The notes: generated by a model not told the origin, from the letters alone. A stretch of DNA of 64,000 bases from an uncultured Lentisphaerales bacterium (GCA_943788985.1 CALSSJ010000005.1:1-64000); one strand, 5' to 3'. Positions 7,338 through 32,868 are shown, counted from the first letter of the stretch. Numbers and translations: made by a program.

Positions 7338-7403
7338 TGCGTGATGCGTGATCGGTCATCAATCCGGCCGAGTGGCTGAGAACTCCAAGATGCCTGCCTC
7401 CCA

Positions 7404-7772: not shown

Positions 7773-7776
7773 CTAA

Positions 7777-8429: not shown

Positions 8430-8582
8430 CTACAGTAACCACCCACGATCTGGCTTTGACACTGGCAAGTTGTTGCCCGCAGTCATGCGGTACAATCACC
8501 ACTGCATTGGGATAGGATCACTTACGTCCAGGGCCAGTGGTCCCGAAAACGGCCACCTCTCATCTCCCCAGTTTTGAACGCT

Positions 8583-14282: not shown

Positions 14283-14313
14283 TAGTCGCCAGCCGCCCCG
14301 GTTCAGTAGTCGC

Positions 14314-15216: not shown

Positions 15217-15221
15217 GCCCT

Positions 15222-15297
15222 ACGATAGCCTCTGTATAGGTCTTGTCTAGGTTTAGTACGGGCAAAATCCAGCGCACTGCACATGTTGTCTAGGACG
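15222..15297. promoter_or_regulatory. Candidate CarH operator (11-bp direct repeats)
   Basis: ACGATAGCCTC TGTATAGGTCT TGTCTAGGTTT AGTACGGGCAA in 11-bp register, plus a further TTGTCTAGG at 15286. Confidence 0.6.
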
Positions 15298-15301
15298 AAG
15301 T

Positions 15302-15329
15302 TTGACAATAATTGTTTGTTGCCTACTAT
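15302..15329 (+). promoter_or_regulatory. Sigma70-type promoter for the lipid-modification operon
   Basis: TTGACA-N16-TACTAT, 35 nt upstream of ATG 15364. Confidence 0.6.
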
Positions 15330-15363
15330 ATCGGACATTGGCGAACACTACCGAGCGAAACGA

Positions 15364-16299: not shown

Positions 16300-17558
16300 A
16301 CATTGCAGTGATAGGCAGTGGAATATCCGGCCTGACCGCGGCTCGGAAACTATCCGCTGATCACACGGTTGCTTTGTTCGAACGCGAGTCACGGCTCGGT
16401 GGGCACACCCACACAGTCACGGTTCCCTATGAAGGCCGAGAGTGGCACATCGATACGGGCTTTATCGTTTTCAATCATCGCAACTACCCGCGCTTCACTG
16501 CGCTATTACGGGAGCTCGACGTCCCGACGCTGCCGACCACCATGAGCCTTGGCGTGTGCTCAGATGCAGATGGCATCGAGTACTGTGGCAGCAGCTTGTC
16601 TCAGCTATTCGCGCAACGTCGAAATCTGGCCTCACCGCGATTCTACGGAATGCTGCGTGATATTATCCGCTTCCACAAAGCCGCCGACGCCTTCCTGGCT
16701 AAACCAGATCCGAAAGAATCCATGCTCAACTTCGTGGGGCATTTACGTCTGGGCAAGGCCTTTCGAGAGTGGTATCTGGTCCCCATCATGGCGGCGATCT
16801 GGTCCACAGAGCCAGCTCGCACGCTGTCGTTCCCCGCGCTGTTCATCCTCCGCTTCTTGCGAAACCATGGCATGACCCAAGTGAAAGGTCGCCCGCAATG
16901 GCATGTGCTTCGGGGGGGCTCATCTCAGTACCTCGCCCCAATTTCTGCCTCGTTTCGCGATCGGATTCACCTGCATACTCCCGTTGATGGGATTAGCCGC
17001 ACCAGTCGTGGTGCTGAACTCTACTCTGGGGGGCGGAAAATCGGCTTCTTCGATGCAGTTGTGATCGCGACTCATAGCGATACGGCACTCAAGCTCTTGG
17101 GTGATCAAGCGACCTCTGCCGAGCGTGAGGTTCTGGGCGCAATTCCATATCAGCAAAATGATGTGGTGCTTCACAATGACACCAGCATCCTCCCGCGCTC
17201 GCGCCGCGCCTGGGCTTCCTGGAACTACCGTGTCGGCACTGAGGCCACCAAGCCTCCTATCGTGACCTATAACATGAACGAGCTTCAGCGGCTTGAGGCA
17301 CCGACAACCTTCTGCGTGACTTTGAACAGCGATGCAATTGCACCCGAGGCCGTATTCGCGCGCTTTCGCTATGACCACCCCCTGTTTACCTCGCAGGCAG
17401 TGGCTGCGCAAGCGCGTCACCGTGAAATCAACGGTCAGAATCGCCTCTACTTCTGTGGGGCCTACTGGGGGAACGGCTTTCACGAAGACGGCGTCGTCAG
17501 TGGCGAGACTGCGGCGGCTCACCTCGAGGCAGATCATCCTCGGGGGATTGCGGTATGA
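16296..17558 (+). CDS. FAD-dependent oxidoreductase (amine oxidase family, UfaD-like)
   Basis: IAVIGSGISGL, RLGGHTHT, DTGFIVFN, AWASWNY, GAYWGNGFHEDG; ATGA overlap. Confidence 0.88.
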   Translation: MNIAVIGSGISGLTAARKLSADHTVALFERESRLGGHTHTVTVPYEGREWHIDTGFIVFNHRNYPRFTALLRELDVPTLPTTMSLGVCSDADGIEYCGSSLSQLFAQRRNLASPRFYGMLRDIIRFHKAADAFLAKPDPKESMLNFVGHLRLGKAFREWYLVPIMAAIWSTEPARTLSFPALFILRFLRNHGMTQVKGRPQWHVLRGGSSQYLAPISASFRDRIHLHTPVDGISRTSRGAELYSGGRKIGFFDAVVIATHSDTALKLLGDQATSAEREVLGAIPYQQNDVVLHNDTSILPRSRRAWASWNYRVGTEATKPPIVTYNMNELQRLEAPTTFCVTLNSDAIAPEAVFARFRYDHPLFTSQAVAAQARHREINGQNRLYFCGAYWGNGFHEDGVVSGETAAAHLEADHPRGIAV

Positions 17559-18295
17559 CAGCCAGTGCAGTCTATCACGGAATCGTCACGCACGAGCGTT
17601 CGGAGCCCACCCAGCATAGCTTTCAGTACCGACTGGCCATGCTGTATCTGGATTTGGGCGAGCTGGACGACCTTATCCAGCACAATCGTCTGCTCTCTCG
17701 CTCTCGCTTGGCCCCCATTAGTTGGAACCGTAGCGACTATCTGGCGCCCGACACACTCTCGCTGGCGCAGGCCGTTCGTGATGCGGTCGAGGGCGCACTC
17801 GGCTTCCGCCCCGAGGGCGCCATTCGGGTACTGACCCACCCACGCTACTTTGGGTACGTCTTTAATCCTGTGAGCTTCTACTACTGCTTTGACGGAGCTG
17901 ACGAACTCGTTGCGATCTTGGCAGAGATCACCAACACGCCATGGAAAGAGCGGCACAGCTACATCTTGCCTGCCGCAAACCGCTGCGTGATTGCGGAATT
18001 TGCAAAGGAGTTTCACGTCTCCCCCTTCATGCCAATGAACCAGTCCTACCGCTGGTGCCTGACTGAGCCGAGGGATGAATTGCATGTGAACATGCAGACG
18101 CTTCAGCAGAGCCAGCAAGTCTTCTGCGCCACTCTTGCCCTGTCACGGCAGCCGCTGACCACCCGTTCCTTGGCTGGCGCCATGGTGCGCTATCCGCTTA
18201 TGACGCTGCGCGTGATCAGTGCCATCTACCTCCAAGCGCTTCGTCTGCGCCTCAAGCGCACTCCCTTTCATCCACATCCGCGAGGTTCCGTATGA
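17555..18295 (+). CDS. DUF1365 family protein (UfaO-like)
   Basis: PRYFGYVFNPVSFYYC, AEITNTPWKERH, KEFHVSPF, IYLQALRL. Confidence 0.9.
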   Translation: MTASAVYHGIVTHERSEPTQHSFQYRLAMLYLDLGELDDLIQHNRLLSRSRLAPISWNRSDYLAPDTLSLAQAVRDAVEGALGFRPEGAIRVLTHPRYFGYVFNPVSFYYCFDGADELVAILAEITNTPWKERHSYILPAANRCVIAEFAKEFHVSPFMPMNQSYRWCLTEPRDELHVNMQTLQQSQQVFCATLALSRQPLTTRSLAGAMVRYPLMTLRVISAIYLQALRLRLKRTPFHPHPRGSV

Positions 18296-19545
18296 TGCTC
18301 CCGCACTTGGGCACCAGAGCTATGCCCCTTCAGCCTAGTTCGCTCGATCTACTCTCTCGTTTCGCTCGCCAAGCGGTCTTTCGCCAGCTCGGCACAATCC
18401 AGAAGGGCTGGATCGAGCTGATCGATACCGATGGAACGATACACTTCTTCGGCTGCAAAGACGCAGAGCTGCACGCTCAAATCGAGGTGTTGGATCCACG
18501 CTTCTACCGCCTGCTGGTCACCGGCGGCGCCAATGGAGCCGCAGAGGCATGGTGCCTTGGCTTCTGGAAAAGTCACGAACTTGTCACTCTACTGAGGATC
18601 TTTGTCCGTGACGGGCAAACGCGGCGAGAGATGGAATCCGGTACGGCGCGTGTGGCCCAGTTGCTGCGCAAGCTGCGCTTGTCCAGTGCCAACAATACCC
18701 GTGGCAAGAACAAGCTTTACATCGCAGCGCACTACGATCTTGGCAATTCGTTTTTTGCCCAGTTTCTAGATGAAACGATGATGTACTCTGCAGCGATCTT
18801 CGATTCGCCAGAGGTGGACCTGCATACCGCACAGGCACGAAAGAACCGTCGAATCTGTGAGCTGGCTGGTCTGAGACCTGGCATGGAGGTGTTGGAAATT
18901 GGTAGCGGCTGGGGAGGCTTCGCTGCCATGGCAGCCGGGGAATTCGATTGCCAGGTGACCACCACTACGATCTCTGAAGAGCAGTTCACCTACACCTGTG
19001 AACGAATCAGATCGCTTGGCTTGAGCGAGCGTGTCACTGTGATCCGCGAAGACTACAGAGATCTGCAAGGGCAGTACGATGCCATCGTCTCGATCGAGAT
19101 GATCGAAGCCATCGGAGCGCACCACTACGACGACTACTTTGCGGTCGCAGCAAGGTGTCTTAAGCCCGATGGACGATTCGTCGTCCAGGCCATTACCATT
19201 GATAACGATCAGTACGAGCGGGCGAGCCGTGAGGTTGATTTCATCAAGCAGTACATCTTTCCCGGCAGCTGCATCCCTTGTGAGGGAGTTCTGCGGGCGA
19301 GCTCGTCACGTGCTGGCCTGGTTTGGGAAAGTGCCGATGATATTGGCCAACACTACGCCACAACCCTGGCGCACTGGCGCGATAACTTTCTTGGCAATCT
19401 CGCGCAAATCCGTGAACTTGGCCTACCAGCAAGCTTCATTCGCATGTGGGTCTACTACTTCTGCTACTGCGAGGCCGGCTTCCATGAGGCCTATATCAGC
19501 AATCTGCAGATCACCTTGCGGAATCCCGGAAAGTCGCTGGCATGA
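18292..19545 (+). CDS. Cyclopropane-fatty-acyl-phospholipid synthase family methyltransferase (UfaM/Cfa-like)
   Basis: IAAHYDLGN, MMYSAA, LEIGSGWG, SIEMIEAIG, FIKQYIFPG, YYFCYCEAGF. Confidence 0.92.
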   Translation: MMLPHLGTRAMPLQPSSLDLLSRFARQAVFRQLGTIQKGWIELIDTDGTIHFFGCKDAELHAQIEVLDPRFYRLLVTGGANGAAEAWCLGFWKSHELVTLLRIFVRDGQTRREMESGTARVAQLLRKLRLSSANNTRGKNKLYIAAHYDLGNSFFAQFLDETMMYSAAIFDSPEVDLHTAQARKNRRICELAGLRPGMEVLEIGSGWGGFAAMAAGEFDCQVTTTTISEEQFTYTCERIRSLGLSERVTVIREDYRDLQGQYDAIVSIEMIEAIGAHHYDDYFAVAARCLKPDGRFVVQAITIDNDQYERASREVDFIKQYIFPGSCIPCEGVLRASSSRAGLVWESADDIGQHYATTLAHWRDNFLGNLAQIRELGLPASFIRMWVYYFCYCEAGFHEAYISNLQITLRNPGKSLA

Positions 19546-20315
19546 TTTTGAGCTCGTTTGTGGCAGCGACGGTGCTTATGACCCTCGGGTGGTGGGGCGT
19601 CCGTCGTGGCATATTTCCGCTTGGCTGTGTGGACCTGCTGTGGGCCGTGTGCATCTGGCTTACTGCAGTCATGGCGTTTGCCAGCGGCAGTCACTCACTT
19701 CCCGCTTTCCTGCTGCTCGCGATGGTCACGATCTGGGCATTGCGCCTGGGCATCCTACTCGTCTCCCGGTTTCGTTCCGGGCGCGAGGACCGGCGCTACG
19801 CCAGTCTTCGTACTCACTGGGGCGGTGAAATCGGCTGGCGATTCTGGAGCATGTTTCAGGTCCAAGGCATCTTCGCGGTCCTGCTTGTCTGGCTCCTGGC
19901 TCCTGCGTTCTTCGCACCACTTGTTCTTCCTGGCCTGCTCGCTGGTGGAATTGGGCTATTCGGCCTTGGCTTCACCGGCACTCTGGTGGCCGACTGGCAG
20001 CTGTCCCGCTTCAAAGCGTCCGGAGCGTCCGGCCTGTGCCGCCAAGGCCTCTGGCACAGCGCTCGGCATCCCAACTACTTCTTCGAAATGCTGACCTGGG
20101 CAGGAATGGGGCTGGTCACCCTTGCCTGCGCCGACGGCTGGCCAGGCATCATCAGCGTACTGCTAATTTCTGGCAGTATCTGCTTTCTGACAGGCGTCCC
20201 CCCGAAAGAGCGCCTGGCTGCAGAGCGCTATGGCGCCGCCTACCAAACCTACAAAGCCGAAACCAATCGCTTCCTTCCCTTATCCCTCACAGACCCAAGA
20301 AATGGTGCAACATGA
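19542..20315 (+). CDS. DUF1295 membrane protein (steroid 5-alpha-reductase-like)
   Basis: EDRRY, ADWQL, GLWHSARHPNYFFE; multiple transmembrane segments. Confidence 0.88.
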   Translation: MILSSFVAATVLMTLGWWGVRRGIFPLGCVDLLWAVCIWLTAVMAFASGSHSLPAFLLLAMVTIWALRLGILLVSRFRSGREDRRYASLRTHWGGEIGWRFWSMFQVQGIFAVLLVWLLAPAFFAPLVLPGLLAGGIGLFGLGFTGTLVADWQLSRFKASGASGLCRQGLWHSARHPNYFFEMLTWAGMGLVTLACADGWPGIISVLLISGSICFLTGVPPKERLAAERYGAAYQTYKAETNRFLPLSLTDPRNGAT

Positions 20316-21334
20316 TCACCCGCAAGCTCGATCTCCTCACCCTCCCAGACAGCCTAATCCGCGTCGGCATCAGGGTCTTAGTCAAGCGGCGACTCAAAGC
20401 CCTTCGACACGGTGGTTCTGTCCAGCAAGAAGAGCGCAAAGAAGAGCTGATCAAACAGCTGAGTCAAGGGCCAATCGCCGTCGCGACCGATGAGGCAAAC
20501 GACCAGCACTATGAAGTCCCAGCCGCCTTCTATTCCTACGTACTTGGCCCCATGCTCAAATACTCGTGCTGCCACTGGCCAGCGGGCGTTACGACATTGG
20601 CAGAAGCCGAAGTAGCGATGATGGATCTGGTGATCGAGCGAGCTCAAATCAAGGATGGTCAGGATGTCTTGGATCTTGGCTGTGGCTGGGGTTCATTCAC
20701 CTTGCACGCGGCTCAGCGGTTCCCACAGAGTCGGTTTGTGGCCGTGTCCAACTCCAACTCGCAGCGCGTGTTTATTACCGAGCAGGCTGCTCGCATCGGT
20801 CTGGAAAACGTCTCCGTCATCACTGCCGATATTAACGAACTTAAGCTGAGCGAGACCTTCGACCGCATTGTCAGCATCGAGATGTTCGAGCACATGCGCA
20901 ACTACCAAGCGTTGGGCCAACTCGTCAGTTCGATGCTTAAGGATGACGGCCAGCTATTTGTGCACGTTTTTTGCCATAGCAAGCATGCGTACCTGTTCGA
21001 GGACAAGACCGATGATGACTGGATGGCACGCTATTTTTTCACTGGCGGCACCATGCCCTCGGCAGACCTGCTGCCGCGCTGCTTTGATACATTGAGCTGT
21101 ACAGAGCAATGGTGGCATAGCGGAGATCACTACGCCAAGACAGCCGAAGCCTGGCTGGAGAACATGGATCGTCATCGGACCGAATTACAACCACACTTTC
21201 AAGAAACCTATGGAGACGAAGCGAAGCGTTGGTGGGTCTATTGGCGCACCTTCTTCATGGCATGTGCCGAACACTTCAATTACAGCCATGGTGCCGAATG
21301 GCATATCGAACACTACACATTCCGCAAATCATGA
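20312..21334 (+). CDS. Second Cfa-like SAM-dependent methyltransferase
   Basis: ANDQHYEVP, KYSCC, LDLGCGWGS, SIEMFEHMRN, WMARYFFTGG. Confidence 0.9.
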   Translation: MITRKLDLLTLPDSLIRVGIRVLVKRRLKALRHGGSVQQEERKEELIKQLSQGPIAVATDEANDQHYEVPAAFYSYVLGPMLKYSCCHWPAGVTTLAEAEVAMMDLVIERAQIKDGQDVLDLGCGWGSFTLHAAQRFPQSRFVAVSNSNSQRVFITEQAARIGLENVSVITADINELKLSETFDRIVSIEMFEHMRNYQALGQLVSSMLKDDGQLFVHVFCHSKHAYLFEDKTDDDWMARYFFTGGTMPSADLLPRCFDTLSCTEQWWHSGDHYAKTAEAWLENMDRHRTELQPHFQETYGDEAKRWWVYWRTFFMACAEHFNYSHGAEWHIEHYTFRKS

Positions 21335-21816
21335 CACGGTATCTACTGATGACACTGCTCTGTGCCACCACATCTCTTGCCGCCTCCGACCGTGCCGAAA
21401 CCATCGAGAGCTTCTTCAATGCAGTCTCTCGCGACACCATGCACGTTCTGGACGACTTCTACGCCAGCGATGTCCACTTCATCGATCCACTAGGTGAGCT
21501 ACATGGTCTCCCGGCGCTCCGTGCCTATTACGAGCGAATGTACGAGCCCGTGACCGCCATTCAGTTCGACTTTCCCAGCATTCAGCTGATCGAAAACGAG
21601 GCCTTTGCCACGTGGACCATGACCTTCTCATCCAGCAAACTGAAGCGTGGTCGTTCCATCGTCGTTGATGGTCTTTCACACATCCGTTTCGGTGCTGACG
21701 GCAAAGTCATCTATCACCGAGACTACTTCGACGTCGGTGCCATGGTCTATGAGCATGTGCCCGTGCTTGGCTTCTTTACCCGCTACCTTAAACGAAAACT
21801 GGGAGACCATCCATGA
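21331..21816 (+). CDS. SnoaL/NTF2-like protein with predicted signal peptide
   Basis: YASDVHFIDP, HRDYFD, YEHVPVLG. Confidence 0.82.
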   Translation: MTRYLLMTLLCATTSLAASDRAETIESFFNAVSRDTMHVLDDFYASDVHFIDPLGELHGLPALRAYYERMYEPVTAIQFDFPSIQLIENEAFATWTMTFSSSKLKRGRSIVVDGLSHIRFGADGKVIYHRDYFDVGAMVYEHVPVLGFFTRYLKRKLGDHP

Positions 21817-22412
21817 AATCACTGGTCGGCCTGGCCCTCTCATTGCTTTGCCTCAACCTTCACGCAGGCAACTACGAAGCCCCCCTATTCAGCAGCCATC
21901 TCAGCGAGGGAAGCTTCGAAATCCGCGACTACACACCCATGAACGTCGTGCAGACCAAATTGCCCAGCGATACAAAAAAGGATCGCAACGCCGGCTTCAT
22001 GCGGCTCTACGGTTACATCACCGGCAAGAACCAAGGCAAGGAGAAGATCGCCATGACGATCCCGGTCATGATGACCCGCGGCGTCCAGGAACCGACCATG
22101 CGATTCGTCCTGCCCCGTGACACCGATCCGATTCCCCCCCCCAGTGACAGCAAGGTTTCGACGACCTCCTTCGCTCCCGGCTGGGTCGCCGTGATTCGCT
22201 TTAAGGGCCGCGAGTGGGATTCACGTTGCGAGAAAGAAGAGAAGGAACTTCGCGCCTGGCTCAAGACCCAGAATCTCAGCGGCGGAACCGCCAGGCTTGC
22301 CGTCTATAACGAGCCGTGGGTTCTCGGTTTCCTCCGGCGAAACGAGATCCACATCCAGCTCACCGACCCCATCCCAGTGCTACAAGAGCGGTTCAGCGCA
22401 CAGCCGGAGTAA
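21813..22412 (+). CDS. SOUL heme-binding family protein
   Basis: FEIRDY, GFMRLYGYITGKN, KIAMTIPV, MRFVLP, YNEPW...RRNEI. Confidence 0.88.
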   Translation: MKSLVGLALSLLCLNLHAGNYEAPLFSSHLSEGSFEIRDYTPMNVVQTKLPSDTKKDRNAGFMRLYGYITGKNQGKEKIAMTIPVMMTRGVQEPTMRFVLPRDTDPIPPPSDSKVSTTSFAPGWVAVIRFKGREWDSRCEKEEKELRAWLKTQNLSGGTARLAVYNEPWVLGFLRRNEIHIQLTDPIPVLQERFSAQPE

Positions 22413-22823
22413 GGCACTTGGAGCGCAGGCATCCCACTTGCTGCATAGGTAAGTAGGGATTTCAAACTACGAAACACGCAAAACACCCAAAAACACCCAA
22501 AACACGCGAAGGGAAGCCGGGAGCGCGGGCAGCTCGCCCGCACCACTACGTGATTCGCACCAAGCGGTGGCCGCGGGGGGCCGCCCCACATTCTTCCAAG
22601 CGTGCGTTCCAGTGTTCACGATTGCCAATCGGGCCATCGCCATCAATCAACCCGCAGCGTTCCTCTTGCGCAGTCAGCCGTGCGAACTTCGCAGCGTGCG
22701 GATAGTCGTCTAGCACAAAGAGCTCTGCGAAGCATTGAAGGCTGCGTAAAAACTTTGCTAGACGATTTAATGAGGAGCAAGATGCTTCAATGCATTTCTG
22801 CTGCGAAGGCATAGAGTGTGGGG

Positions 22824-25800
22824 ATGAGTGATATGGCTAACCTGAACTGCATTTTCTGTGGTGAACCTCCCTCTGTGGTGGTTGCGGAGAATGAGCTTGC
22901 GGTCGCTTTTCGGGATGGTTTTCCGGTCAGCCCGGGGCACACGTTGATCGTGCCTCGGCGACACGTCGCTGACTGGTTTGATGCGTCGGAGCAAGAACAG
23001 GCGGCCATCCTTGAGCTGTTGAACGTGCGCAAGAACGCATTGTCTGCAGAACTCCGGCCATCGGGTTATAACGTCGGCATCAACTGCGGCCAAGCTGCTG
23101 GACAGACCGTCATGCATCTGCACGTGCATCTGATCCCTCGATTCGAAGGCGATGTCGACTGCCCGGATGGTGGGGTTCGATTCGTGATCCCAGAGAAGGG
23201 TGACTACAAGTCACCAGGACGCATTCCTCAGATCAATGCTTCGCAACAACGCCTGACCAAGGGTGGAAGCCAGGATCCCTTGTGGACGCAGCTCCGACCG
23301 CTATTCGCTCAAGCGAGCGTCATTCGCATCGTTGCTGCATTCGTGCAGAATAGTGGCGTTCGAGTCTTGGATGATCACATCCAGTCCGCGATCTGTCGCG
23401 GATGCTCGGTACAGATTATCACCGGTGACTATTTAAATATCACACAGGAACAGGCCCTCCGGCATCTCCTCTTGTTGCAGACGGCTGAGGCTCTTCCTGA
23501 TGAGGAGCTTGGCGGTCGAGAAGCCCGGGGACAGCTTGAGGTGAGAGTGGTAGAGATCGCGCGAATCGAAGCGCGCACGTTTCACCCAAAGGCTTGGATG
23601 TTCTCCGGGGCTGGATGTGCTGTGGCATTCGTTGGCAGTAGCAATATGAGCCGCGCAGCCTTGATAGATGGTGTCGAATGGAATCTGCGCGTGGATTGCG
23701 CAGGAGATGCCACAGCGTATACTGAGATCATTCAGGCCTATGAGGAACTCTGGGACGAAGCCCGAACCATCGATGACGATTGGTTGGATGGTTATGCGGA
23801 ACGTGCAAAGACCGCTGCCCGGCAGTTGCCCCCGGGAGAAATATGTGAAGCCCCGCGTGAGCGGCCGGAGCCCAGGCCGATACAAGAGGAAGCGCTAGAG
23901 GCGTTGCGGAGCACACGTGCAGATGGCGTTGACCGTGGCTTGGCAATTCTAGCGACGGGCTTGGGGAAAACGTGGCTAGCGGCTTTCGATTTTCAGCAAT
24001 TTCGTGCGGAAAGGCCGGGGGCGCGTCTATTGTTCGTTGCGCATCGTATCGAGATTCTGCGCCAGGCTGCACGTACATTCCAACAGTTACTCCCCGATGT
24101 TGATGTCGGATTTTGGGTGGGAGGGGAGAGAAGCTCGGATCGATCCATGGTCTTTGCGTCTGTGCAGGCGCTTCGGATTGAAAAACTCGCGATTTTGGAC
24201 CCCACAGAATTTGACTATGTCGTCATTGACGAGGTGCATCATGCGGCCGCAGACAGCTATCGGGCAATCATGGACACCCTCAAGCCAGGTTTCTGGCTCG
24301 GGCTGACAGCCACTCCGACGCGAGCGGACGGTGGCGATGTCATTGGCCAATTCGATGATAACATTGTTTTTGAAGCTGGATTGGATGTGGGGATCCGTGA
24401 TGAGCATCTTGTACCGTTTCGGTATTTTGGCTTGGCAGATACCGTTGATTACAGCGCCGCCCGAATCCCTTGGAGACGAGGCAGATTCGATCAAGCTCGA
24501 CTTGACGCGGCGTTGCGAAGCGAGGGCCGCATGGGCACTGCATGGAATGCCTGGAATACGTATCATGGTACGCGGACGCTGGTGTTTTGTTGTTCGATCG
24601 AGCATGCCAAGTACGTCCGAGACTACCTCCTTAAGCGAGGTGTCCGCGTAAAGGCGGTGCACTCGGGCCCTGGAAGCGATGATCGAGCTGAGGCATTAGA
24701 GGAACTCGCGGCTGGCCAACTCGACGCGATTTGTTCCGTGGATGTCTTTAACGAAGGGGTGGATGTTCCGGAGGTTGACCGAGTCATGATGCTCCGGCCC
24801 ACGGAATCGAATGTGGTTTTTCTTCAACAACTAGGGCGTGGGCTACGAGCCGCGCAAGACAAAGAGCATTTGACCGTGATCGATTTTGTCGGGAATCATC
24901 GCATGTTTTTGGAAAGGCTGCGGACGCTAATGACGTACGCTTCTGCTGACATGAAGGAGGGACTCGTTGCCGCGTTGAAGCGAGCCGTTCTGGAGTCGCC
25001 CTATGCGGAGATAAATATTGACCTGGAGGCCATCGATCTTCTCGAAACACTGATCCGCCGCACCCAGACGAATCCGACGATACGTCTCTTTCGGGAACTG
25101 GTCGATGCAAGAGGCAGCAGGCCAAGTGCGGCGGAGCTAGCTCGCTTGGGGGGCAAACTGAAGAAGTCGATGAAGCCGTGGTTTCAGTTTCTGACAGAGG
25201 AAACGCAGTTGTTACCAGAGGAAGCGGAGGTGCTGGATGAGCATGGTCGGTGGTTTTCAGCTTTACAGAGCACGTCTATGAGCAAGTGCTTCAAGGCAGT
25301 GACATTGCAGGTTATGCTCAGTGAGAAAGTATTTTGGTCAGGCATGAATCTGCAAGCACTGGCAGACGAGAGTATCGCATTCATTCAGCGCTCTCCAGGC
25401 TTGCGCGTCGACCTGAATGTACGGGATAACCTGGAGTCGCCCAAGGGGCGCCTCAGCTATTGGAAGAAGAACCCGATACGAGCTTGGAGCGGATCTGAGT
25501 GGTTCAAAGTGCATGATGGGCTTTTCAAATTCTCGAGAGACGTGAAGGCCGAGCATCAACTGGCATTCAGGCATATGACGGAGGAGTTAATTGACTACTT
25601 GATCTATTGCTATCGTCAGAGGGAGAAGATCAAAGAAGCTGAAGAAGGGGGCGGGCTGGCCATTTTTGCATCCGAGCCATCCGGCGTTCAAGCTGTACCG
25701 ATTCTGGACATGGCCGCAGCTGCTGGCGGCTTTCTATGGTCCATCGGTGAGGGCCTTCCTGCCGGCTGGATGCAGGTCGAGCGTCCTGGCCGATTGGACG

Positions 25801-26156
25801 ACCTGTTTGTCGCCCCGGTGAAGGGGAAATCCATGGAGCCTAAGATCCCCAGCGACTCTTGGTGTCTTTTTCGGCGATCCCCTGGTGGCTCCCGAAATGG
25901 CCGGCTGCTCTTGGTAGAGCACCATTCGATCTATGATCCTGACTTCGCAAGTGGGCTAACAGTTAAGGAGTACCAACGAGCCCCACAGGCGCTTGTCGAT
26001 GGTGAAGAGCGCCAAGGCGCTATTGTACTTAAACCGCGCAATCCCGCTTTTGATGAGATTCGAATCGAAGCCGATGATGCGGAGGAATTCCGTGTGCTCG
26101 GTGAGTTTGTCGAGGTGCTGGCTCCTATCTCTGACAACGACTTATTGCGCTTTTAG
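22824..26156 (+). CDS. HIT-PLD nuclease-SF2 helicase-S24/LexA-like peptidase fusion (candidate defence protein)
   Basis: CIFC and HLHVHLIPR (HIT); FHPK...VGSSN (PLD); ATGLGKT, DEVHH, TATP, FNEGVD, QQLGRGLR (SF2); GKSMEP...TVK...LKPRNP (S24). Confidence 0.88.
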   Translation: MSDMANLNCIFCGEPPSVVVAENELAVAFRDGFPVSPGHTLIVPRRHVADWFDASEQEQAAILELLNVRKNALSAELRPSGYNVGINCGQAAGQTVMHLHVHLIPRFEGDVDCPDGGVRFVIPEKGDYKSPGRIPQINASQQRLTKGGSQDPLWTQLRPLFAQASVIRIVAAFVQNSGVRVLDDHIQSAICRGCSVQIITGDYLNITQEQALRHLLLLQTAEALPDEELGGREARGQLEVRVVEIARIEARTFHPKAWMFSGAGCAVAFVGSSNMSRAALIDGVEWNLRVDCAGDATAYTEIIQAYEELWDEARTIDDDWLDGYAERAKTAARQLPPGEICEAPRERPEPRPIQEEALEALRSTRADGVDRGLAILATGLGKTWLAAFDFQQFRAERPGARLLFVAHRIEILRQAARTFQQLLPDVDVGFWVGGERSSDRSMVFASVQALRIEKLAILDPTEFDYVVIDEVHHAAADSYRAIMDTLKPGFWLGLTATPTRADGGDVIGQFDDNIVFEAGLDVGIRDEHLVPFRYFGLADTVDYSAARIPWRRGRFDQARLDAALRSEGRMGTAWNAWNTYHGTRTLVFCCSIEHAKYVRDYLLKRGVRVKAVHSGPGSDDRAEALEELAAGQLDAICSVDVFNEGVDVPEVDRVMMLRPTESNVVFLQQLGRGLRAAQDKEHLTVIDFVGNHRMFLERLRTLMTYASADMKEGLVAALKRAVLESPYAEINIDLEAIDLLETLIRRTQTNPTIRLFRELVDARGSRPSAAELARLGGKLKKSMKPWFQFLTEETQLLPEEAEVLDEHGRWFSALQSTSMSKCFKAVTLQVMLSEKVFWSGMNLQALADESIAFIQRSPGLRVDLNVRDNLESPKGRLSYWKKNPIRAWSGSEWFKVHDGLFKFSRDVKAEHQLAFRHMTEELIDYLIYCYRQREKIKEAEEGGGLAIFASEPSGVQAVPILDMAAAAGGFLWSIGEGLPAGWMQVERPGRLDDLFVAPVKGKSMEPKIPSDSWCLFRRSPGGSRNGRLLLVEHHSIYDPDFASGLTVKEYQRAPQALVDGEERQGAIVLKPRNPAFDEIRIEADDAEEFRVLGEFVEVLAPISDNDLLRF

Positions 26157-26204
26157 CCGGCGCCTATCGCGGCTCTAAAGAGTTTCACTAGGATAAGGTT
26201 TCAA

Positions 26205-27092
26205 ATGGCAACGAAGAAGATATCAGCCTCGGCCGTAGCAAAGAAGATCGGGTGCAGCAATCGCGAGGTATTCGGCAAGCTCATGAAAGCAGGACTGTTG
26301 GTCAAAAAGGACGACGCCTGGTGCCTGACCGATGCCGGCCAAGAGGCCGGTGCTGAATACCGGGAGTCGAGCAACTACGGCCGATATATCGTCTGGCCTG
26401 CCGACTTGTTTGAAGTCGCGCAGGTGCAGGATACGCCACTAAACTCAACCAAGCTCGGCGTCCATTTTCAGCTCAGTGCCGGACGAATGAACAAGCTTCT
26501 TGCAGAGATCGGCTGGATCGAGCGAGGTGTTAAGGGGTGGCACGTGACAACCGCCGGGAAACGCGTAGGAGGCTATGAACGCGAGCATCACAGTTCCGGC
26601 GTACCCTACGCAACGTGGCCCGACGACATCGTCAACAATCCCGTCCTAGTGGAGAATGTCAGCGACATCACTGGAGCAACGGCTGAGCCACCTGTACAGC
26701 GTAACGCCCCCAAGACGGATGCCCAAGAGATCGCGAGCTTTCGCGAGAAGTTTGAAGCACGGATTCGTACAATGGATGGCCACTACGTCCGTTCACGTGC
26801 CGAAATGGCGATCGATAACTGGCTCTACGTAACGGGCCTGGTTCATGCCTATGAGCGCAAACTTCCAATAGAGGAAGACGTCTACTGCGACTTCTATCTG
26901 CCCGAAGGGAAAGTGTACATCGAGTACTGGGGGCTTGAAAATGATCCGCGCTACACCGAACGCAAGAAGACAAAGCTGGGGATTTACCGGAAATACACCT
27001 ACAACTTGATCGAACTCACCGATGAAGACATCCTCAGCCTTGATGACGTCATGCCTCGCAAACTCCTTAAATTCGGCATCAAGGCGGACTGA
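26205..27092 (+). CDS. Tandem winged-helix (KilAC-like) plus PD-(D/E)XK-like nuclease domain protein
   Basis: Two internally similar units, each ending W.(L/V)T.AG...G...WP; C-terminal VRSRAEMAIDNWL...YE...CDFYL...IEYWG. Confidence 0.7.
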   Translation: MATKKISASAVAKKIGCSNREVFGKLMKAGLLVKKDDAWCLTDAGQEAGAEYRESSNYGRYIVWPADLFEVAQVQDTPLNSTKLGVHFQLSAGRMNKLLAEIGWIERGVKGWHVTTAGKRVGGYEREHHSSGVPYATWPDDIVNNPVLVENVSDITGATAEPPVQRNAPKTDAQEIASFREKFEARIRTMDGHYVRSRAEMAIDNWLYVTGLVHAYERKLPIEEDVYCDFYLPEGKVYIEYWGLENDPRYTERKKTKLGIYRKYTYNLIELTDEDILSLDDVMPRKLLKFGIKAD

Positions 27093-27096
27093 ACTC

Positions 27097-30000
27097 ATGT
27101 CGCATTCCGATTCCAATCACGACGAGAGCGAGAGGTTCCCCGAAGGTCTCTACGACAGGCTGGCCACTGAAGAACTCCGAGAGGTACTCGGAGGCGAGAA
27201 CCCCAACGTCCGCTGGGAAAAGGTTGACCCAGCGGAACTGTATGACCGTGTGGCAGCCTATTATGCACACGAATTGGCACAGACGTTGTCCACTTCTGCC
27301 GGCCAAGCTGTGACCACGGCGGATCTCAGCCGGCTTGTGCAGAGCCTATTCGCGGAAAAGAAGCTACCGCTGGTCCCCGCCAAGTCACTAACGCAGATCG
27401 GCACGAAGTCGGTTTCGCGCCCGGAGACACCTCTTGCTCTCTCCGCCCTTCTAACAGGTTCCAGTCGCTCACCATCGTTGCGTGCTCAACTTGTGCGCGA
27501 GCTACAAAGCTGCGATCGCGCAGACTGGTTGGTGTCCTTCATCAAGTTCAGCGGACTCCGCCCGTTATTGGATGCGTTGAGGGAGTTTACTGCGACGCCA
27601 GCAGAATTAGGGCCGCGGCTACGCATCGCGACTACCTCCTATATGGGAGCAACTGACATTCGGGCCGTTGAGGAACTACTCAAACTCCCGAACACCGAAG
27701 TTCGCGTTTCGTACGATACGCACCGCACGCGGCTGCATGCAAAAGCCTACCTGTTCTACCGGCATACAGGATTCGGCAGTGCCTACATCGGGTCTGCGAA
27801 CCTCTCCAAGCATGCCATTGACGAGGGGCTCGAATGGACGGCCAAAATTAGCCAGGCACAGCTGCCATACCTGTGGCAACAAGCAACCGCGACGTTCGAA
27901 TCACATTGGCGCGACGAGGTGGAGTTTACTCGCTGCACCTTGGATTCCGTATCTGAGTTTCATGCTGCGCTGAATGCTCAACGAGCCCAGCCGGACGCAT
28001 TGCCTACGTTCTTTGACTTGCGGCCCTATACCTTTCAGAAAGCGATTCTTGAAGACATCGCCGACGAACGTTCTGCTGGCAAGGAGCGCCATTTGGTCAT
28101 CGCGGCAACGGGGACTGGCAAAACCATGATCGCCGCCTTCGATTACCGTGCGTTCGCAAAGGGAGGCTGCAACCGACGGCCGAGCTTGCTGTTTCTTGCT
28201 CATCGGGAGGAGATACTCAAACAAGCATGCGATTCGTTTCGCGCCGTATTGCGGGACGGGAGCTTTGGAGAAATCAAAACCGGTCAAACCCGCCTCACCC
28301 AAGATAAACACGTCTTTTGTACCGTTCAGTCCTGGCGGTCACAACTGGGCCAACTTCCCGCCAATCACTTCGACTACGTAGTACTCGACGAGGCACATCA
28401 TGCAAAGGCTCAGACCTATGAGGAGATCCTGGACTATCTTCGCCCAGTCTCTTTGCTTGGTTTGACTGCAACGCCGGAGCGCCTTGACGGAGGCGATATT
28501 CGAGCCCGCTTCGCTGGAACGTACACGCACGAACTACGGCTTGGCGATGCGATTGACGGTAAGCTCCTCGTGCCATTCCACTATTACGGGATTTCCGATC
28601 TTCCAGGGCTGAGCCTGGAAGACGTTCAATGGCGTGGCACGGGCTACGACCAAGCGCAATTGACCGACCGTCTCTGTTCCGATGAGCGCGCTGGCTGGGT
28701 GCTGGAGCAAGCAAAGAACTATGTCGCAGAATTGCAGGTGATGAAGGCAATAGCGTTTTGCGTGAGTATCAAGCACGCGAACCATATGGCAGCCTTCGCC
28801 GCTGAACGTGGAATTGGGGCAATCGCGTTGACGAGCCAAACATCACGGGAAGAGCGAATCGCTGCGCAACGTCGCCTCCAAACTGGAGAGTTGCAACTCG
28901 TCTGTACGGTCGATCTCTATAACGAAGGTGTGGACTTGCCCTTCGTTGACGCAGTCTTGCTGCTGCGTCCAACAGAAAGCCTGACGATCTTTCTGCAACA
29001 GATTGGCCGTGGACTCAGAACGTTCGATAATAAATCGCATCTCACGATTCTCGATTACATCGCGCCGCAGCATGATCGTTTTAACTACGCTGACCGCTTC
29101 CGCGCCTTCTCGTCAAACCGCAGCCGGCGGATTGATGATCAGATCAGTGCGGGCATGCCATACGTTCCTGCTGGCTGCTTTGTACAACTGGAGCGTCAAG
29201 CTTCCGAAACGGTCTTGGCGAATATCGGGATTGCTGCACGGCGTTTGAAGGCGCGCAGAATACAGCAGGAGCTTAGGGCGCTTTGGGAGGTGGAACAGCG
29301 CCGGCCAGAGCTTACAGAGCTCCTGAATGCACTGCTGTGCGATACTCCTGATGCAATCTATCGGTTAGTGTTGCCTTCGATGGCCTTGGATCAGGCCACG
29401 AACCGAGAGATTGAGCTAGAGCCGAAGCAAGAGATGCAACTTCGCAAGGGGCTACGTCGATTGCTACGGATCGATGATTCCCATTTGCTGGATCAATATT
29501 GTGATTTTCTAAACGGGAAAGCCTGTGACCAACAGATTATTGCGCTGGTCCACAGCGTGCTGTGGGGTGCCGGCGAGAAGGGGCTCACCTTGACTGGCAG
29601 CAAGGAGTTTCTGCGCGCTCGTCCTGGGCTGACAGCTGACCTGCTGGATTTGGTGGATTGGAAGAGAAGCAGGGATGTTGCTCGGCCGTTTATCCCGTGC
29701 AAGGGTTTGAACGCAATCTCTGTGCACGGGAGCTATACGCGAGAACAGGTGATTTTGGCAGCAGGTCACGGGACGTTTGAGCATCCCGTGAGCAATCGTG
29801 AAGGCGTATTGCACGTGCCGGAAAGAAAACTCGACATCTTCTTTGCCGACATACACAAGAGTGAAGCGGATTTCTCGCCCACCACAATGTACCAAGACTA
29901 CGCCATCACTCAGAATCTGTTCCACTGGCAAAGCCAAAGCGCTACGCACTCTAATTCCCGGGTTGGGAGACGATACATCGAGCACGAAGACCGAGGCTAC

Positions 30001-30180
30001 ACGCCCCTCCTATTCATACGTGATCGCAAGAAAGACGCCGCTGGCATGACCACCCCTTACCTATGTGCTGGCCCGCTATGCTATCGCGGTCACGAAGGCA
30101 ATCGTCCTATATCGTTCTCGTGGGAGCTGGAGACGCCACTTCCAGCTCGGGCTTTTTCTTGGGCTCAGCAGGCAGGGTGA
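27097..30180 (+). CDS. PLD nuclease-SF2 helicase-DUF3427 protein (SauUSI-like type IV restriction architecture)
   Basis: LHAK...IGSANLS; ATGTGKT, DEAHH, TATPER, QQIGRGLR; C-terminal REGV...FSPTTMYQDYAI...FHWQSQS. Confidence 0.9.
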   Translation: MSHSDSNHDESERFPEGLYDRLATEELREVLGGENPNVRWEKVDPAELYDRVAAYYAHELAQTLSTSAGQAVTTADLSRLVQSLFAEKKLPLVPAKSLTQIGTKSVSRPETPLALSALLTGSSRSPSLRAQLVRELQSCDRADWLVSFIKFSGLRPLLDALREFTATPAELGPRLRIATTSYMGATDIRAVEELLKLPNTEVRVSYDTHRTRLHAKAYLFYRHTGFGSAYIGSANLSKHAIDEGLEWTAKISQAQLPYLWQQATATFESHWRDEVEFTRCTLDSVSEFHAALNAQRAQPDALPTFFDLRPYTFQKAILEDIADERSAGKERHLVIAATGTGKTMIAAFDYRAFAKGGCNRRPSLLFLAHREEILKQACDSFRAVLRDGSFGEIKTGQTRLTQDKHVFCTVQSWRSQLGQLPANHFDYVVLDEAHHAKAQTYEEILDYLRPVSLLGLTATPERLDGGDIRARFAGTYTHELRLGDAIDGKLLVPFHYYGISDLPGLSLEDVQWRGTGYDQAQLTDRLCSDERAGWVLEQAKNYVAELQVMKAIAFCVSIKHANHMAAFAAERGIGAIALTSQTSREERIAAQRRLQTGELQLVCTVDLYNEGVDLPFVDAVLLLRPTESLTIFLQQIGRGLRTFDNKSHLTILDYIAPQHDRFNYADRFRAFSSNRSRRIDDQISAGMPYVPAGCFVQLERQASETVLANIGIAARRLKARRIQQELRALWEVEQRRPELTELLNALLCDTPDAIYRLVLPSMALDQATNREIELEPKQEMQLRKGLRRLLRIDDSHLLDQYCDFLNGKACDQQIIALVHSVLWGAGEKGLTLTGSKEFLRARPGLTADLLDLVDWKRSRDVARPFIPCKGLNAISVHGSYTREQVILAAGHGTFEHPVSNREGVLHVPERKLDIFFADIHKSEADFSPTTMYQDYAITQNLFHWQSQSATHSNSRVGRRYIEHEDRGYTPLLFIRDRKKDAAGMTTPYLCAGPLCYRGHEGNRPISFSWELETPLPARAFSWAQQAG

Positions 30181-30199
30181 GCATGAGCGGATGTAGCGA

Positions 30200-30530
30200 C
30201 AACCGCCGATGGACACGAATGTGGGAGTAGGAAGGAAGATTTCACCACGGAGGACACGGAGAGCACGGAGAAGAAGGAGGGGAGAGGAGAGCCAGGAAGG
30301 TGGCCCGTAGGTATGGCGTCAGGAGGTCATGAGCGTCGTCGGGAGTCGGGAGTCGGTAGTCAGGAGTCCTATCAAACCGGCAGGGAAAGGAGAAGCGTGG
30401 AGGCTGTGGGGGAGTGGGAAGGAAGACTTTACCACGGAGGTCACGGAGAGCACGGAGAAGAAAGAGGTGGGGAGGTTGCCAGATGAATCTGGCGGTACGG
30501 GGAGAACCGCCTGAAGGCGGGACTACGAGC
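30200..30530. repeat. Composite intergenic repeat patch (CACGGAG units, GGGAGTC units, REP-like CCGCCTGAAGGCGGGACTAC)
   Basis: ACCACGGAGGACACGGAGAGCACGGAG at ~30244, a near-identical copy at ~30431 and a shorter one at ~12605. Confidence 0.7.
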
Positions 30531-30631
30531 CCTCTACTGATGCGGCAAAACTGCGCCATCATTCTGCAGGGCGGGCACCGGACCGTTATCTTGCCCCGTT
30601 CTCGGGAGCCTACCGTCACTAGCCTGCTCTC

Positions 30632-31180
30632 ATGAATCATGTCGGCCAAACTACTCGGGGTTTCGCCGTTGTGCTTCTGAGTCTCTGGTCGTTCTAACTT
30701 CTCGGTGGGTATCGCGGTAGTTGGCCATCACAACAAGGTTCCGGATGAGTGTGTGCTCTGTCATTCGATGGTTGCCTACGGGGCGCCGAACCGCTGGCAC
30801 AAGCGCTCGCATCGTGGTCGCAAGCGCTGCGGGATGCAGTTTGCCAGGTGGTCGGTTCGGGTTAAGCTGGGGCAGACCAAGCAGCCTAAGTACGATCCGG
30901 ATGTGTGGGCGAAGCGGTTGGTCAACGCCGATCCCTACCTGGCCAAAGTGCCGTATGGGACGGCTTCTGCGCAGGAGAAGGCGTTGCAGCGCTATGCATC
31001 CAGTGCTGCGGACGTGATCTCCGCAACGCGTTCGGCCTGGGACATCGCGCGGGATCGCTACAGGAGCGCAGGGATCACCTATGTTTCCCCAATGGCAGGC
31101 AGGCAGGCACGTGGCAATGAGATCAGGGACTGGAAGGCGATGCCGGCTGGGACGAAGTTGATTTTGCCTGCTGAACGCCC
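30632..31180 (+). pseudogene. Degraded gene, possibly N-acetylmuramoyl-L-alanine amidase-like
   Basis: Signal-peptide stub MNHVGQTTRGFAVVLL, then in another frame HSMVAYGAPNRWH...RGRKRCG...YDPDV...NADPYLA; family assignment from memory only. Confidence 0.4.
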
Positions 31181-31285
31181 AGAGACCCGCCAATTTCCGA
31201 GAGATTCGGCGCGGGATCGAATGGATGGTAGAAGGCCACTGCCGTGGCGCACTACCAACGAGGGGGGGCGCGTAGGGAGACGCGA

Positions 31286-32146
31286 TCAGCTGAAGATGAT
31301 GGTGCGATTGTCGTGGACGGCGATTCGCTCTTCCAGGTGCAGGCGCACGGCGCGTGAGAGGACGATCTTCTCGTTGTCGCGGCCCTTGCGTATCAGGTCG
31401 CGCACGGGGTCGCGATGGCTGACGCGAACGGTGTCTTGATCGATGATCGGGCCTTCGTCCAAGTCTTCAGTGACGTAGTGGGCAGTGGCCCCAATGATCT
31501 TTACGCCTCGTTCATGCGCCCGGTGATAGGGCTTGGCACCGGCGAAGGCCGGAAGAAAGGAGTGGTGGATGTTGATAATGCGCTCGCTGTAGGCAGAGGC
31601 GAAGCTGCTCGACAGAATCTGCATGTAGCGGGCCAGGACTACAAAGTCGATCGCATGTTCGGCCAGTAGGGCGAGTTGCTGGGCTTCTTGATCGGCCTTG
31701 TTATCACGTGTAACGACGAGTTGGTGAAAGTCACAGCCAAACTGCCGCGCAGTATCTGCGAAGGTATCGTGATTGCTGATTACGAGGGGGATGTCGACGT
31801 CTAATTCGCCGGACTGGGAGCGCGTAAGCAGGTCCCAGAGGCAGTGGCCCATCTGCGAGACCAAGATGGCCATGCGCGGGCGATTCCCCGGGAGGCGGAT
31901 GCGCCAGTTCAGTCCCAGTGGCTCTCCGATTTCACGCGCGAACGCATCATGAATCTGGCCGCTTGGGATGATAAAGTGGTCCAAGTCCCATTCAATCCGA
32001 ATGAAGAATTGATCCGTGCTGCGATCGACATGTTGGTCGAGCTCCAGCAAGTTCCCGTGATGGTTGTGAAACCATTGAGTGATCGTCGCGACCAATCCAG
32101 TTCGGTCCGCGCATTGCGCGACCAGTATGGCACGGGAGTCCGGCAA
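31286..32146 (-). CDS. purU: Formyltetrahydrofolate deformylase (start codon uncertain)
   Basis: ACT domain CADRTGLVA; VLARYMQIL, INIHHSFLPAFAGAKPY, GATAHYVTEDLDEGPII. Confidence 0.95.
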   Translation of the reverse strand: MPDSRAILVAQCADRTGLVATITQWFHNHHGNLLELDQHVDRSTDQFFIRIEWDLDHFIIPSGQIHDAFAREIGEPLGLNWRIRLPGNRPRMAILVSQMGHCLWDLLTRSQSGELDVDIPLVISNHDTFADTARQFGCDFHQLVVTRDNKADQEAQQLALLAEHAIDFVVLARYMQILSSSFASAYSERIINIHHSFLPAFAGAKPYHRAHERGVKIIGATAHYVTEDLDEGPIIDQDTVRVSHRDPVRDLIRKGRDNEKIVLSRAVRLHLEERIAVHDNRTIIFS

Positions 32147-32868
32147 AGCTACGCGCTGTTGCGCTCTACTCTTCGCCTTCGTCTTCTTCTTCCAATTCCG
32201 CCACAATCCGGGCGCGTTGGAGAGTGCGTTCGGCGCTAGTGAGGCCACGCCACCAACGCTTTAGGTCGCTGGGCTTTTGGTCCGAATATTCGGCCCACTG
32301 ATTTAAAAGACGTGCAGTCCGTTCGTTCATCGTGCTATTACCTAAAAATAATGCTGGATAATGCCTGGCCTGCCGTTGGCTCGCACGGCTGCTCTGGCGA
32401 AAAACAAGCGCGTAAGGTAGTCGCAGGCCATGTTCCCGTCAAGCGCAGCCTCGACTGAGACTACAGACGCACTGTTGTCGGGCAGTTAGGGGTGCCTATT
32501 CTATCGCGATTGTGACGCTTTCGCTGTCCTCCGGCAGGGGCACGTACGAGGCTCCGCCTTCAGCGAGGTGGTGAGGGTAGTAGGTGCGGAGCTTCGCCAA
32601 GGCGCTGTTCTTATCGCTGCCCGGGGTGAATTTGATGTGGACACTACGCGGGCCCGGGGCGCAAGGCCCTTGCAGTGGCCTGGGTCATTACGATGCTGCA
32701 CAGCAGCTCCAGGACGCGATCGAAGAGCGCGAGCAAAACGCCTGAATCTCCAACAGCCAACAGCCGAAGGCAGCTGGGATGCATGCTCCACGGTCTTGAT
32801 TTGGCAATTGGACATTCCGTATCGACAGTTGGATATTGTCTCCATCCTCACCGAACTACGAGTGCACC

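Follow-up and report, generated by a model that had tools for sequence, protein, structure and literature searches.

Independent restriction enzymes of different specificity lie side by side in a single variable region of the Escherichia coli K-12 chromosome, the mcrBC-hsd-mrr region. One enzyme of the type IV class, SauUSI, is a homodimer joined through its PLD domains, with the coupler and the reader occupying residues 618-805 and 806-953, respectively (PMC7913695). According to the introduction of PMC6765204, some SauUSI-like enzymes have the specificity domain on a separate neighboring protein. At least 60 SauUSI-like genes have been linked to MutT/NUDIX-type genes (Xu et al. 2011, PMC3141236). 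Here we analyze a locus in a stretch of 64,000 nucleotides (nt) from an uncultured Lentisphaerales bacterium (GCA_943788985.1, CALSSJ010000005.1:1-64000; hereafter, the window), in which two different SauUSI-like proteins, g1 and g3, are encoded on either side of a smaller protein, g2. A sequence-only reading of this DNA had proposed that the three genes form one undescribed anti-phage system. Our results make it probable that the locus is instead an islet of three autonomous DNA-targeting nucleases, probably co-transcribed, rather than one machine.

The locus shares some features with each of the described systems and departs from them in others. In g3, as in SauUSI, a PLD nuclease is followed by an SF2 DExH ATPase, a coupler, and a DUF3427-type reader, and its gene has no methyltransferase gene nearby; however, it matches only the C-terminal half of the DUF3427 profile and carries ~100 extra N-terminal residues. 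g1 shares with SauUSI the PLD nuclease, the ATPase, and probably the coupler, but lacks DUF3427, has a HIT domain before the nuclease, and carries a LexA-type S24 module in the reader position. As in the reported linkage of SauUSI-like and MutT/NUDIX-type genes (PMC3141236), a nucleotide hydrolase is thereby paired with a SauUSI-type enzyme, although in g1 the hydrolase is a HIT-family domain joined to the N-terminus. The tail of g1 has the fold, the Ala-Gly site, and the Ser-Lys pair of LexA, UmuD, and lambda cI in aligned positions, but is fused to a restriction-type nuclease-motor and not to a repressor DNA-binding domain or a polymerase subunit. g2 matches the PADLOC entry PDC-S69, which is a candidate only, from end to end; it is wedged between two PLD-helicases, whereas only a minority of its relatives have such a gene nearby. 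Finally, restriction enzymes stand side by side here as in the mcrBC-hsd-mrr region, although the enzyme families differ and the genes are packed like one operon.

Three intact genes matching single-gene defense entries

g1, g2, and g3 are three intact open reading frames (ORFs) on the plus strand, without internal stops, that together span positions 22818-30180 (ORF listing and translations). g1 starts with a GTG at 22818, the ATG at 22824 being the start taken by the sequence-only reading. For g3, the ORF listing gives a start at 27022, and the ATG at 27097 yields the 4-nt spacing from g2. Read directly from the sequence, the spacings are 48 nt between g1 and g2 (26157-26204) and 4 nt (actc) between g2 and g3, so that the earlier description of three co-oriented, frameshift-free genes with 48-nt and 4-nt gaps holds. 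The same is true of the domain architectures it assigned, which are recovered with Pfam and, for g2, with an AlphaFold model and its fold matches, as well as of the likeness of g3 to SauUSI (PADLOC mREase_IV; PDB 7clg) and of the absence of a methyltransferase.

A probable role in defense, likewise proposed from the sequence, is supported by the PADLOC matches of all three proteins. Each of these matches is to a single-gene entry, namely mREase_IV, covered at full length by g3 and in its core by g1, and PDC-S69, covered at full length by g2. The genes thus correspond to known or candidate single-gene entries, and the proposal of one undescribed three-gene system is not sustained.

The three families rarely travel together

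Co-occurrence of the three genes was surveyed from three anchors: (i) for g2, the best 80 of 485 stretches, 73 of which had at least 3 kb on one side; (ii) for g1, the 80 closest metagenome loci, 43 with at least 3 kb on one side and 26 with that length downstream; and (iii) for g3, 400 other genomes sampled from the phylum of the window, in 26 of which a g3-like gene was found at a cut-off of E = 1e-50. The trio was found in none of the 80 loci anchored on g1, in none of the 26 anchored on g3, and in two of the 80 anchored on g2, which speaks for independent residents and against a fixed three-gene system. Because these families rarely travel together, the locus is most likely an ordinary cluster of separate defenses.

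Around the g1 relatives, g2 was absent from all 80 metagenome loci. Their neighbors are mixed defense genes, including DNA methyltransferases, a type III res subunit, McrBC, AbiEii-like ATPases, and SLFN-helicase-S24 fusions. Neither g2 nor a second PLD-SF2 gene lies near any of the 26 g3 relatives (flanks of up to 8 kb in either direction in 20 loci and of 1.5 kb in six), including the closest one, with 55% identity, for which 8 kb of upstream sequence is available (G018). The g3-like genes that adjoin g2 in other phyla are 42-46% identical to g3 in the ATPase, compared to 39-55% for the full-length genes without g2 in the phylum of the window; being no nearer to g3, they indicate that the g2-g3 pair does not travel as a unit.

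From the g2 side, a PLD-SF2 gene flanks the homolog in 9 of the 80 loci (L002, L045, L046, L048, L053, L073, L075, L076, and L080), and both kinds, without and with DUF3427, occur in only two of these (L048 and L053). Clustering of the neighbors, with Pfam applied to cluster representatives, revealed other recurrent partners, namely NERD proteins (10 loci), UvrD-like helicase-nucleases (seven loci, all from Methylococcaceae), and Mrr_cat proteins (six loci), whereas HNH and GmrSD proteins were single cases. Among 25 further neighbors chosen by size, at least 10 are housekeeping genes, ligA, bipA, argG, mqo, ilvA, and pfkB among them, which shows that g2 homologs often stand alone amid housekeeping genes.

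Several observations weigh against three autonomous enzymes. The composition of the trio does recur in one Bacillota locus and in one deltaproteobacterial metagenome-assembled genome. In the former (L053), the gene order is that of the window, but separate HIT and MazG-like genes lie ahead and a GmrSD gene lies in between; in the latter (L048), the genes stand in another order, and the two helicase genes are in pieces. Many contigs of the g1 set are short, which weakens the absence of g2 from its 80 loci, and the g2 loci surveyed are 80 of 485. In the g2 flanks, PLD-SF2 genes by far outnumber defense families that are otherwise commoner, namely type I restriction-modification genes and GmrSD (one locus each) and McrBC (no cluster in three or more loci); NERD, Mrr, and UvrD-like nucleases likewise greatly exceed type I restriction-modification genes and McrBC. 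On the g2 tree, the presence of a PLD neighbor corresponds to five changes, with at least three independent gains forced by well-supported branches, and is clustered beyond chance (11 of 500 label shuffles scored as low). Moreover, gaps of 4 and 48 nt are in line with translationally coupled, co-expressed genes such as those of genuine multi-subunit systems, and g1, which lacks both DUF3427 and an extra domain of ~100 residues, might depend on a partner for targeting.

These points could also mean that g2 is an optional partner of large helicase-nucleases, encoded just 3′ of them and contributing DNA binding or a second nuclease; g2 would then serve the reader-less g1, g3, or both, and the locus would be a two- or three-part module. 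Such pairing has parallels in the UvrD-like genes of Methylococcaceae and of one conjugative plasmid, each directly followed by a g2 homolog, in the repeated gain of PLD-SF2 neighbors, and in a sister of the window g2 (L002) that likewise follows a PLD-SF2 protein, itself with a weak S24 match (E = 0.003). It would further accord with the short g2-g3 gap and with the separate specificity proteins mentioned in PMC6765204. We nevertheless regard this explanation as unlikely: g2 is missing from every locus surveyed from the g1 and g3 sides, many of its homologs have no such neighbor, the partners that do occur are of many unrelated kinds (NERD, Mrr_cat, HNH, GmrSD, UvrD-like, PLD-SF2), as in a defense island, and gene order and spacing differ between the window, L048, and L053.

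Several g2 neighborhoods are of interest in themselves. In three proteobacterial genomes, g2 homologs form tight operons with a MazG-like (PRA-PH) pyrophosphohydrolase and a THAP4-like beta-barrel protein (L066, 9138-10349; L051, 264-2797; L003, 9016-10852), the gap between the MazG-like gene and g2 being 3 nt in L066; in L051 and L066, a HIT gene lies two to three genes from the g2 homolog. The Methylococcaceae pairs (L010, L012, L018-L021, and L029) comprise a UvrD-like helicase of ~980 residues and, directly after it, the g2 homolog, and the pair on the conjugative plasmid (L220, 3958-7843) has a 56-nt gap. The C-terminal part of the Methylococcaceae helicase resembles the g2 nuclease domain (~30% identity, tblastn), and the protein carries topoisomerase-I-type zinc ribbons. 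Assignment of the Methylomonas UvrD-like neighbor to PADLOC PDC-S68 was considered and rejected, since PADLOC gave RTasHel and GajB-type helicase matches instead.

Table 1. Coordinates of the three genes, their domains, and the downstream repeats in the window
Feature	Position	Strand	Basis
g1, 1112 residues: HIT, PLD nuclease, SF2 ATPase, coupler-like/winged-helix region, LexA-type S24	22818..26156	+	ORF, translation, Pfam, PADLOC
g1 HIT domain, residues 16-110	22863..23147	+	Pfam HIT 2.9e-25; H-x-H-x-H-x-x motif from H100
g1 PLD nuclease, residues 171-312	23328..23753	+	Pfam PLDc_2 1.9e-6; H256-x-K258, GSSN 273
g1 SF2 ATPase, residues 351-678	23868..24851	+	Pfam; Walker A GLGKT at 381, DEVHH at 471
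g1 middle region, residues 730-945, helical and winged-helix-like part in SauUSI coupler position	25005..25652	+	Predicted model, pLDDT mostly >85
g1 S24 LexA/UmuD-like module, residues 960-1112	25695..26153	+	Pfam Peptidase_S24 994-1097 (3e-7), alignments, Foldseek, VIA
g2, 295 residues: tandem winged helix-turn-helix (wHTH), Vsr-like PD-(D/E)xK nuclease	26205..27092	+	PADLOC PDC-S69, model, family alignment
g2 C-terminal nuclease domain, residues ~170-295	26712..27089	+	VIA fold matches; invariant columns in 20 homologs
g3, 1027 residues: PLD, SF2, coupler, DUF3427; type IV restriction enzyme	27097..30180	+	PADLOC, Pfam, SauUSI 7clg
g3 DUF3427 C-terminal half, presumed modified-base reader	29710..30150	+	PF11907 E = 3.4e-16, profile 125-274/280 only
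Two 76-nt direct repeats, 30220-30295 and 30407-30482	30220..30482	+	Repeat family D1, 83% identity, just 3′ of g3

g3 is a full-length SauUSI-type enzyme

The PADLOC model mREase_IV (PDLC03659) matches g3 with E = 7.3e-184 over profile positions 15-938 of 945, and the best solved relative of the protein is SauUSI (7clg, E = 2.2e-84). The nuclease domain is recognized by Pfam as PLDc_2 and RE_NgoFVII, and its translation contains a single HxK motif (H-A-K) and a GSAN motif. The SF2 ATPase is likewise recognized (ResIII, 6.1e-34; Helicase_C, 1.8e-12), with the motifs GTGKT and DEAHH. g3 is thus a full-length SauUSI-type type IV restriction enzyme, for which cleavage of modified DNA is predicted by homology.

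g1 combines the SauUSI core with a HIT head and a LexA-type tail

The match of mREase_IV (PDLC03659) to g1 (E = 5.8e-99) is confined to the core, residues 150-728, as is that of the best solved relative, again SauUSI (7clg, E = 4.1e-72, residues 240-695). Pfam detects no DUF3427 in g1 at E = 0.01 or better. Being without a DUF3427 or SRA-type reader, g1 shares the SauUSI core only and is not a full member of the SauUSI-type type IV enzymes. The N-terminal domain covers positions 3-97 of the 98 in the HIT profile (PF01230), has the histidine triad H-L-H-V-H-L-I at residue 100, and matches HIT-family and Ap4A phosphorylase chains in the PDB at 1e-15 to 1e-17. In the PLD domain, H256, K258, and S274-N276 are nearly invariant among 48 relatives, and the ATPase comprises ResIII (residues 351-502, 4.3e-35) and Helicase_C (581-678, 3.5e-15). 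Structure comparison of the middle region with VIA gave two middling matches, to the ORC2 winged helix (Z = 8.0) and to residues 618-799 of SauUSI (7clg_B; Z = 7.1, 103 aligned). Most relatives have a domain of ~100 residues between the coupler and S24 that is missing from g1, as it is from P0193 and P0277.

The sequence-only reading took g1 and g3 to carry different C-terminal sensor domains. This does not apply to g1, the C-terminus of which is a predicted LexA-type autopeptidase and not a DNA reader. When its predicted structure was compared using Foldseek, 30 PDB chains were matched at E = 0.001 or better, those listed being LexA, lambda cI, or phage 186 repressor with probability 1.0, followed by UmuD at E = 0.007-0.013; with VIA, the Z scores to LexA were 13.7 (Thermotoga maritima LexA) and 13.2. 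The predicted cleavage site, A969-G970, lies within V-P-I-L-D-M-A-A-A-A-G-G, ~35 residues before the serine, and the Ala/Cys-Gly site is kept in alignments of the relatives and of other enzyme classes. The Ser-Lys pair, S1005 (G-K-S-M-E) and K1050 (T-V-K-E-Y), occupies invariant columns of alignment A3, in which columns A238-A240, G241, S276, and K321 are invariant or nearly so.

In the PLD and SF2 domains, g1 and g3 are 33% identical over 604 residues, and neither has lost its PLD, Walker A, or DExH motifs. Given that SauUSI is held together as a homodimer by its PLD domains (PMC7913695), the two proteins might form a PLD heterodimer, a regulated mixed enzyme in which the DUF3427 of g3 would direct g1, itself without a reader but with a LexA tail, to its target. 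A second PLD-SF2 gene is indeed found near the g1 relative in three of the 80 loci (L111, with an overlap of 11 nt, L127, and L168), as well as in L048 and L053. However, it is absent from the other 77, many of them on short contigs, and from all 26 loci of g3 relatives; furthermore, with a full set of HxK, Walker A, and DExH motifs in each protein, homodimers should work, and the 33% identity gives no sign of a matched interface. Since both motif sets are complete, neither protein requires the other on sequence grounds, and we consider the mixed enzyme very unlikely, in keeping with g1 and g3 as autonomous nucleases.

Among the loci examined, L111 holds the tightest pair of two different PLD-helicases: within 4178-10418, a PLD-SF2-DUF3427 gene (1061 residues) overlaps the HIT-PLD-SF2 gene that follows it (1021 residues), and no g2 is present.

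A populous branch of SauUSI-like proteins with putatively self-cleaving tails

A search of 1.84 billion cluster representatives with g1 returned 52,877 matches at E = 0.001 or better, the best of which cover the HIT, PLD, SF2, and coupler parts (residues 10-940). Of the cluster representatives, 3734 match at E = 1e-30 or better, most of them sharing the core only. The g1 architecture is common in its own right: of 36 relatives, chosen by hand and hence not a random sample, 23 have HIT, 20 have S24, 10 have both, and 11 have DUF3427. In several g1 relatives, the C-terminal half of DUF3427 comes after S24. Tails of the g1 type are also found on proteins of other classes, namely SLFN/DUF2075 helicases, a type IIG-like methyltransferase-nuclease, an HNH protein, and a SWI2/SNF2-type protein, which are among 12 proteins at E = 0.001 or better when 8000 candidates were scored. 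The branch of SauUSI-like enzymes that includes g1, characterized by a HIT head and a LexA-type tail predicted to cleave itself, is a populous one. In two metagenome loci, SLFN/DUF2075-type helicases with a LexA-like S24 tail adjoin g1-like genes (L140, 13071-15488, minus strand; L101, 1307-3721, plus strand), the tail being identified by a Pfam match in L140 and by a tblastn match only in L101.

Among the papers listed, our literature searches gave nothing on point for HIT-PLD-helicase fusions in defense islands, nothing relevant by title or abstract linking the S24 peptidase to restriction endonucleases or anti-phage activity, and only LexA biology for DUF2075, S24, and LexA. In the literature found, the branch of SauUSI-like enzymes to which g1 belongs is apparently undescribed.

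g2 is a PDC-S69 protein with a Vsr-like nuclease fold

No Pfam family matches g2 above its cut-off, and a g2 profile finds nothing below E = 0.4 among PDB sequences. The PADLOC match to the single-gene candidate PDC-S69 (PDLC05067, E = 1.7e-106) joins residues 1-294 to profile positions 1-288 of 289. The AlphaFold model (pLDDT 80.9) consists of two small wHTH-like domains, which weakly resemble RacA, Xis, and BldC-type domains (Z ~5-6), and a C-terminal nuclease fold. The closest structures to the latter, as judged with VIA, are I-Bth0305I (3r3p; Z = 9.6, 92 aligned residues, root-mean-square deviation 2.9), NGO0050 (3hrl; Z = 9.1), and Vsr (1cw0; Z = 8.7); Foldseek places 3r3p at probability 1.0 but with E = 4.4e-3. 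E200, D229, E240, H193, H214, and K254 are invariant among 20 homologs and may include the catalytic residues. The Protein Atlas gave for g2 the g2 family itself, together with weak leads to PvuRts1I-like (0.79) and DUF559 (0.77) nucleases, whose scores are below the trust level. The END nucleases, which as characterized in PMC12191111 rest on an inactive EndoIII domain, were also considered and set aside, no such domain being seen in g2. The term PDC-S69 itself was not found in our literature searches, and the listings of papers on PADLOC PDC entries do not name S69, although their supplements could still hold rows for it.

Of 3634 candidates, 2527 proteins belong to the family at E = 0.001 or better; identity is ~50% across phyla, and an alignment of 20 members has 68 invariant columns. 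The branching of a quick maximum-likelihood tree, built from 81 g2 sequences, agrees for the most part with taxonomy, the window g2 grouping with two Lentisphaerota sequences (support 100), and the gene keeps a stable position in seven Photobacterium species. No match was found in 50,697 phage records. Such unusual conservation, a tree that tracks taxonomy, and absence from the phage records would all suit a conserved cellular nuclease of DNA processing or repair that merely happens to lie between two restriction genes, in which case the locus would be partly non-defensive. That g2 is patchy is hard to reconcile with this, its relatives amounting to 485 stretches in a collection of 185,579 species genomes and being of full length in only 2 of 41 relative genomes, the source genome itself (G000) and G034. 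With PADLOC listing it as a defense candidate and with nucleases, toxin-antitoxin genes, and an integrase often flanking it, a housekeeping role for g2 is very unlikely; g2 fits better as one of three separate defenses.

Surroundings of the islet and other features of the window

The islet is bounded by housekeeping genes on both sides. The genes upstream form a run related to lipids and light, the last of them being of the SOUL type (21813-22412); downstream, purU (31286-32248) is encoded on the opposite strand, past ~1.1 kb without a recognizable gene. A Pfam scan detected no DNA methyltransferase among the ORFs of 21.8-32.2 kb, from the SOUL-type gene to purU, and the methyltransferases further upstream are of the CMAS type, that is, lipid methyltransferases.

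The locus had also been described as flanked by repeat patches, which is accurate insofar as there is a pair of 76-nt repeats downstream and a short A/C-rich run upstream of g1 (~22465-22505). The two sides do not match each other, however, and the downstream repeats are not island-bounding direct repeats. Their motif has seven matches in the genome at one mismatch or fewer, four here (30246-30457) and three on other contigs. Between 21500 and 32500, no Rfam family was detected at E = 0.1 or better. Sites resembling promoters and terminators were not in excess over shuffled sequence (4 versus 3.8 and 10 versus 8.6, respectively). The interval from g3 to purU (30181-31285), which contains the repeats, has three ORFs of 135-244 codons, none with a Pfam or PADLOC match.

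Elsewhere in the window, positions 39762-40463 (minus strand) encode a DUF2726 nuclease-like protein of 233 residues with a C-terminal topoisomerase-I-type zinc ribbon and no PADLOC match at E = 1e-5 or better; the same build, a small nuclease with a topoisomerase-I zinc ribbon, is seen in the NERD, Mrr_cat, and UvrD-like neighbors of g2 homologs. At 13338-22412, a B12-binding MerR-type regulator (14314-15216, minus strand) lies between a photolyase-like gene and a co-directional gene run coding for a fatty-acid desaturase, an amine oxidase, DUF1365, two CMAS-type methyltransferases, DUF1295, and SnoaL-like and SOUL proteins. The region looks like a light or oxidative-stress lipid-remodeling cluster; its photolyase ORF (314 residues) has the FAD-binding domain only. 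Two very large adjoining ORFs, of 708 and 2269 codons, occupy 43216-52148 on the plus strand.

Possible modes of action and implications

If the three genes act separately, they would provide layered cover. By analogy with SauUSI, the DUF3427 reader of g3 would recognize a modified base, the SF2 motor would translocate at the expense of ATP, and the PLD dimer would cut. g2 would be a stand-alone nuclease, its wHTH pair binding DNA and the Vsr-like domain, the fold of which is evident in the model, presumably cutting it. g1 would keep the SauUSI nuclease, motor, and coupler, with a self-cleaving LexA-like module in place of the reader, and its HIT head may correspond, in fused form, to the NUDIX genes found in linkage with numerous SauUSI genes. 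Judging from the conserved residues, the tail should cut itself at the predicted site, A969-G970. Such self-cutting would make the activity of g1 depend on a signal from RecA filaments or DNA damage, and could switch the enzyme either on or off.

A bolder version holds that the LexA-like domain has replaced the reader altogether, so that RecA filaments, formed on single-stranded DNA from phage replication or DNA damage, would guide or gate the nuclease-motor, and that g1 works with g2 and g3 as a recurrent module, for which L053 and L048 could be cited. We consider this combination quite unlikely and favor three autonomous nucleases. With the trio most likely an ordinary defense islet, a new three-gene system is no longer to be expected. 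PDC-S69, for its part, markedly prefers sites beside helicase-nucleases and small nucleases, which offers concrete gene pairs for study. If the tail of g1 does answer RecA filaments, there would be restriction enzymes wired directly to the DNA-damage signal, a link relevant to the means by which cells prevent self-cutting or turn it to advantage.

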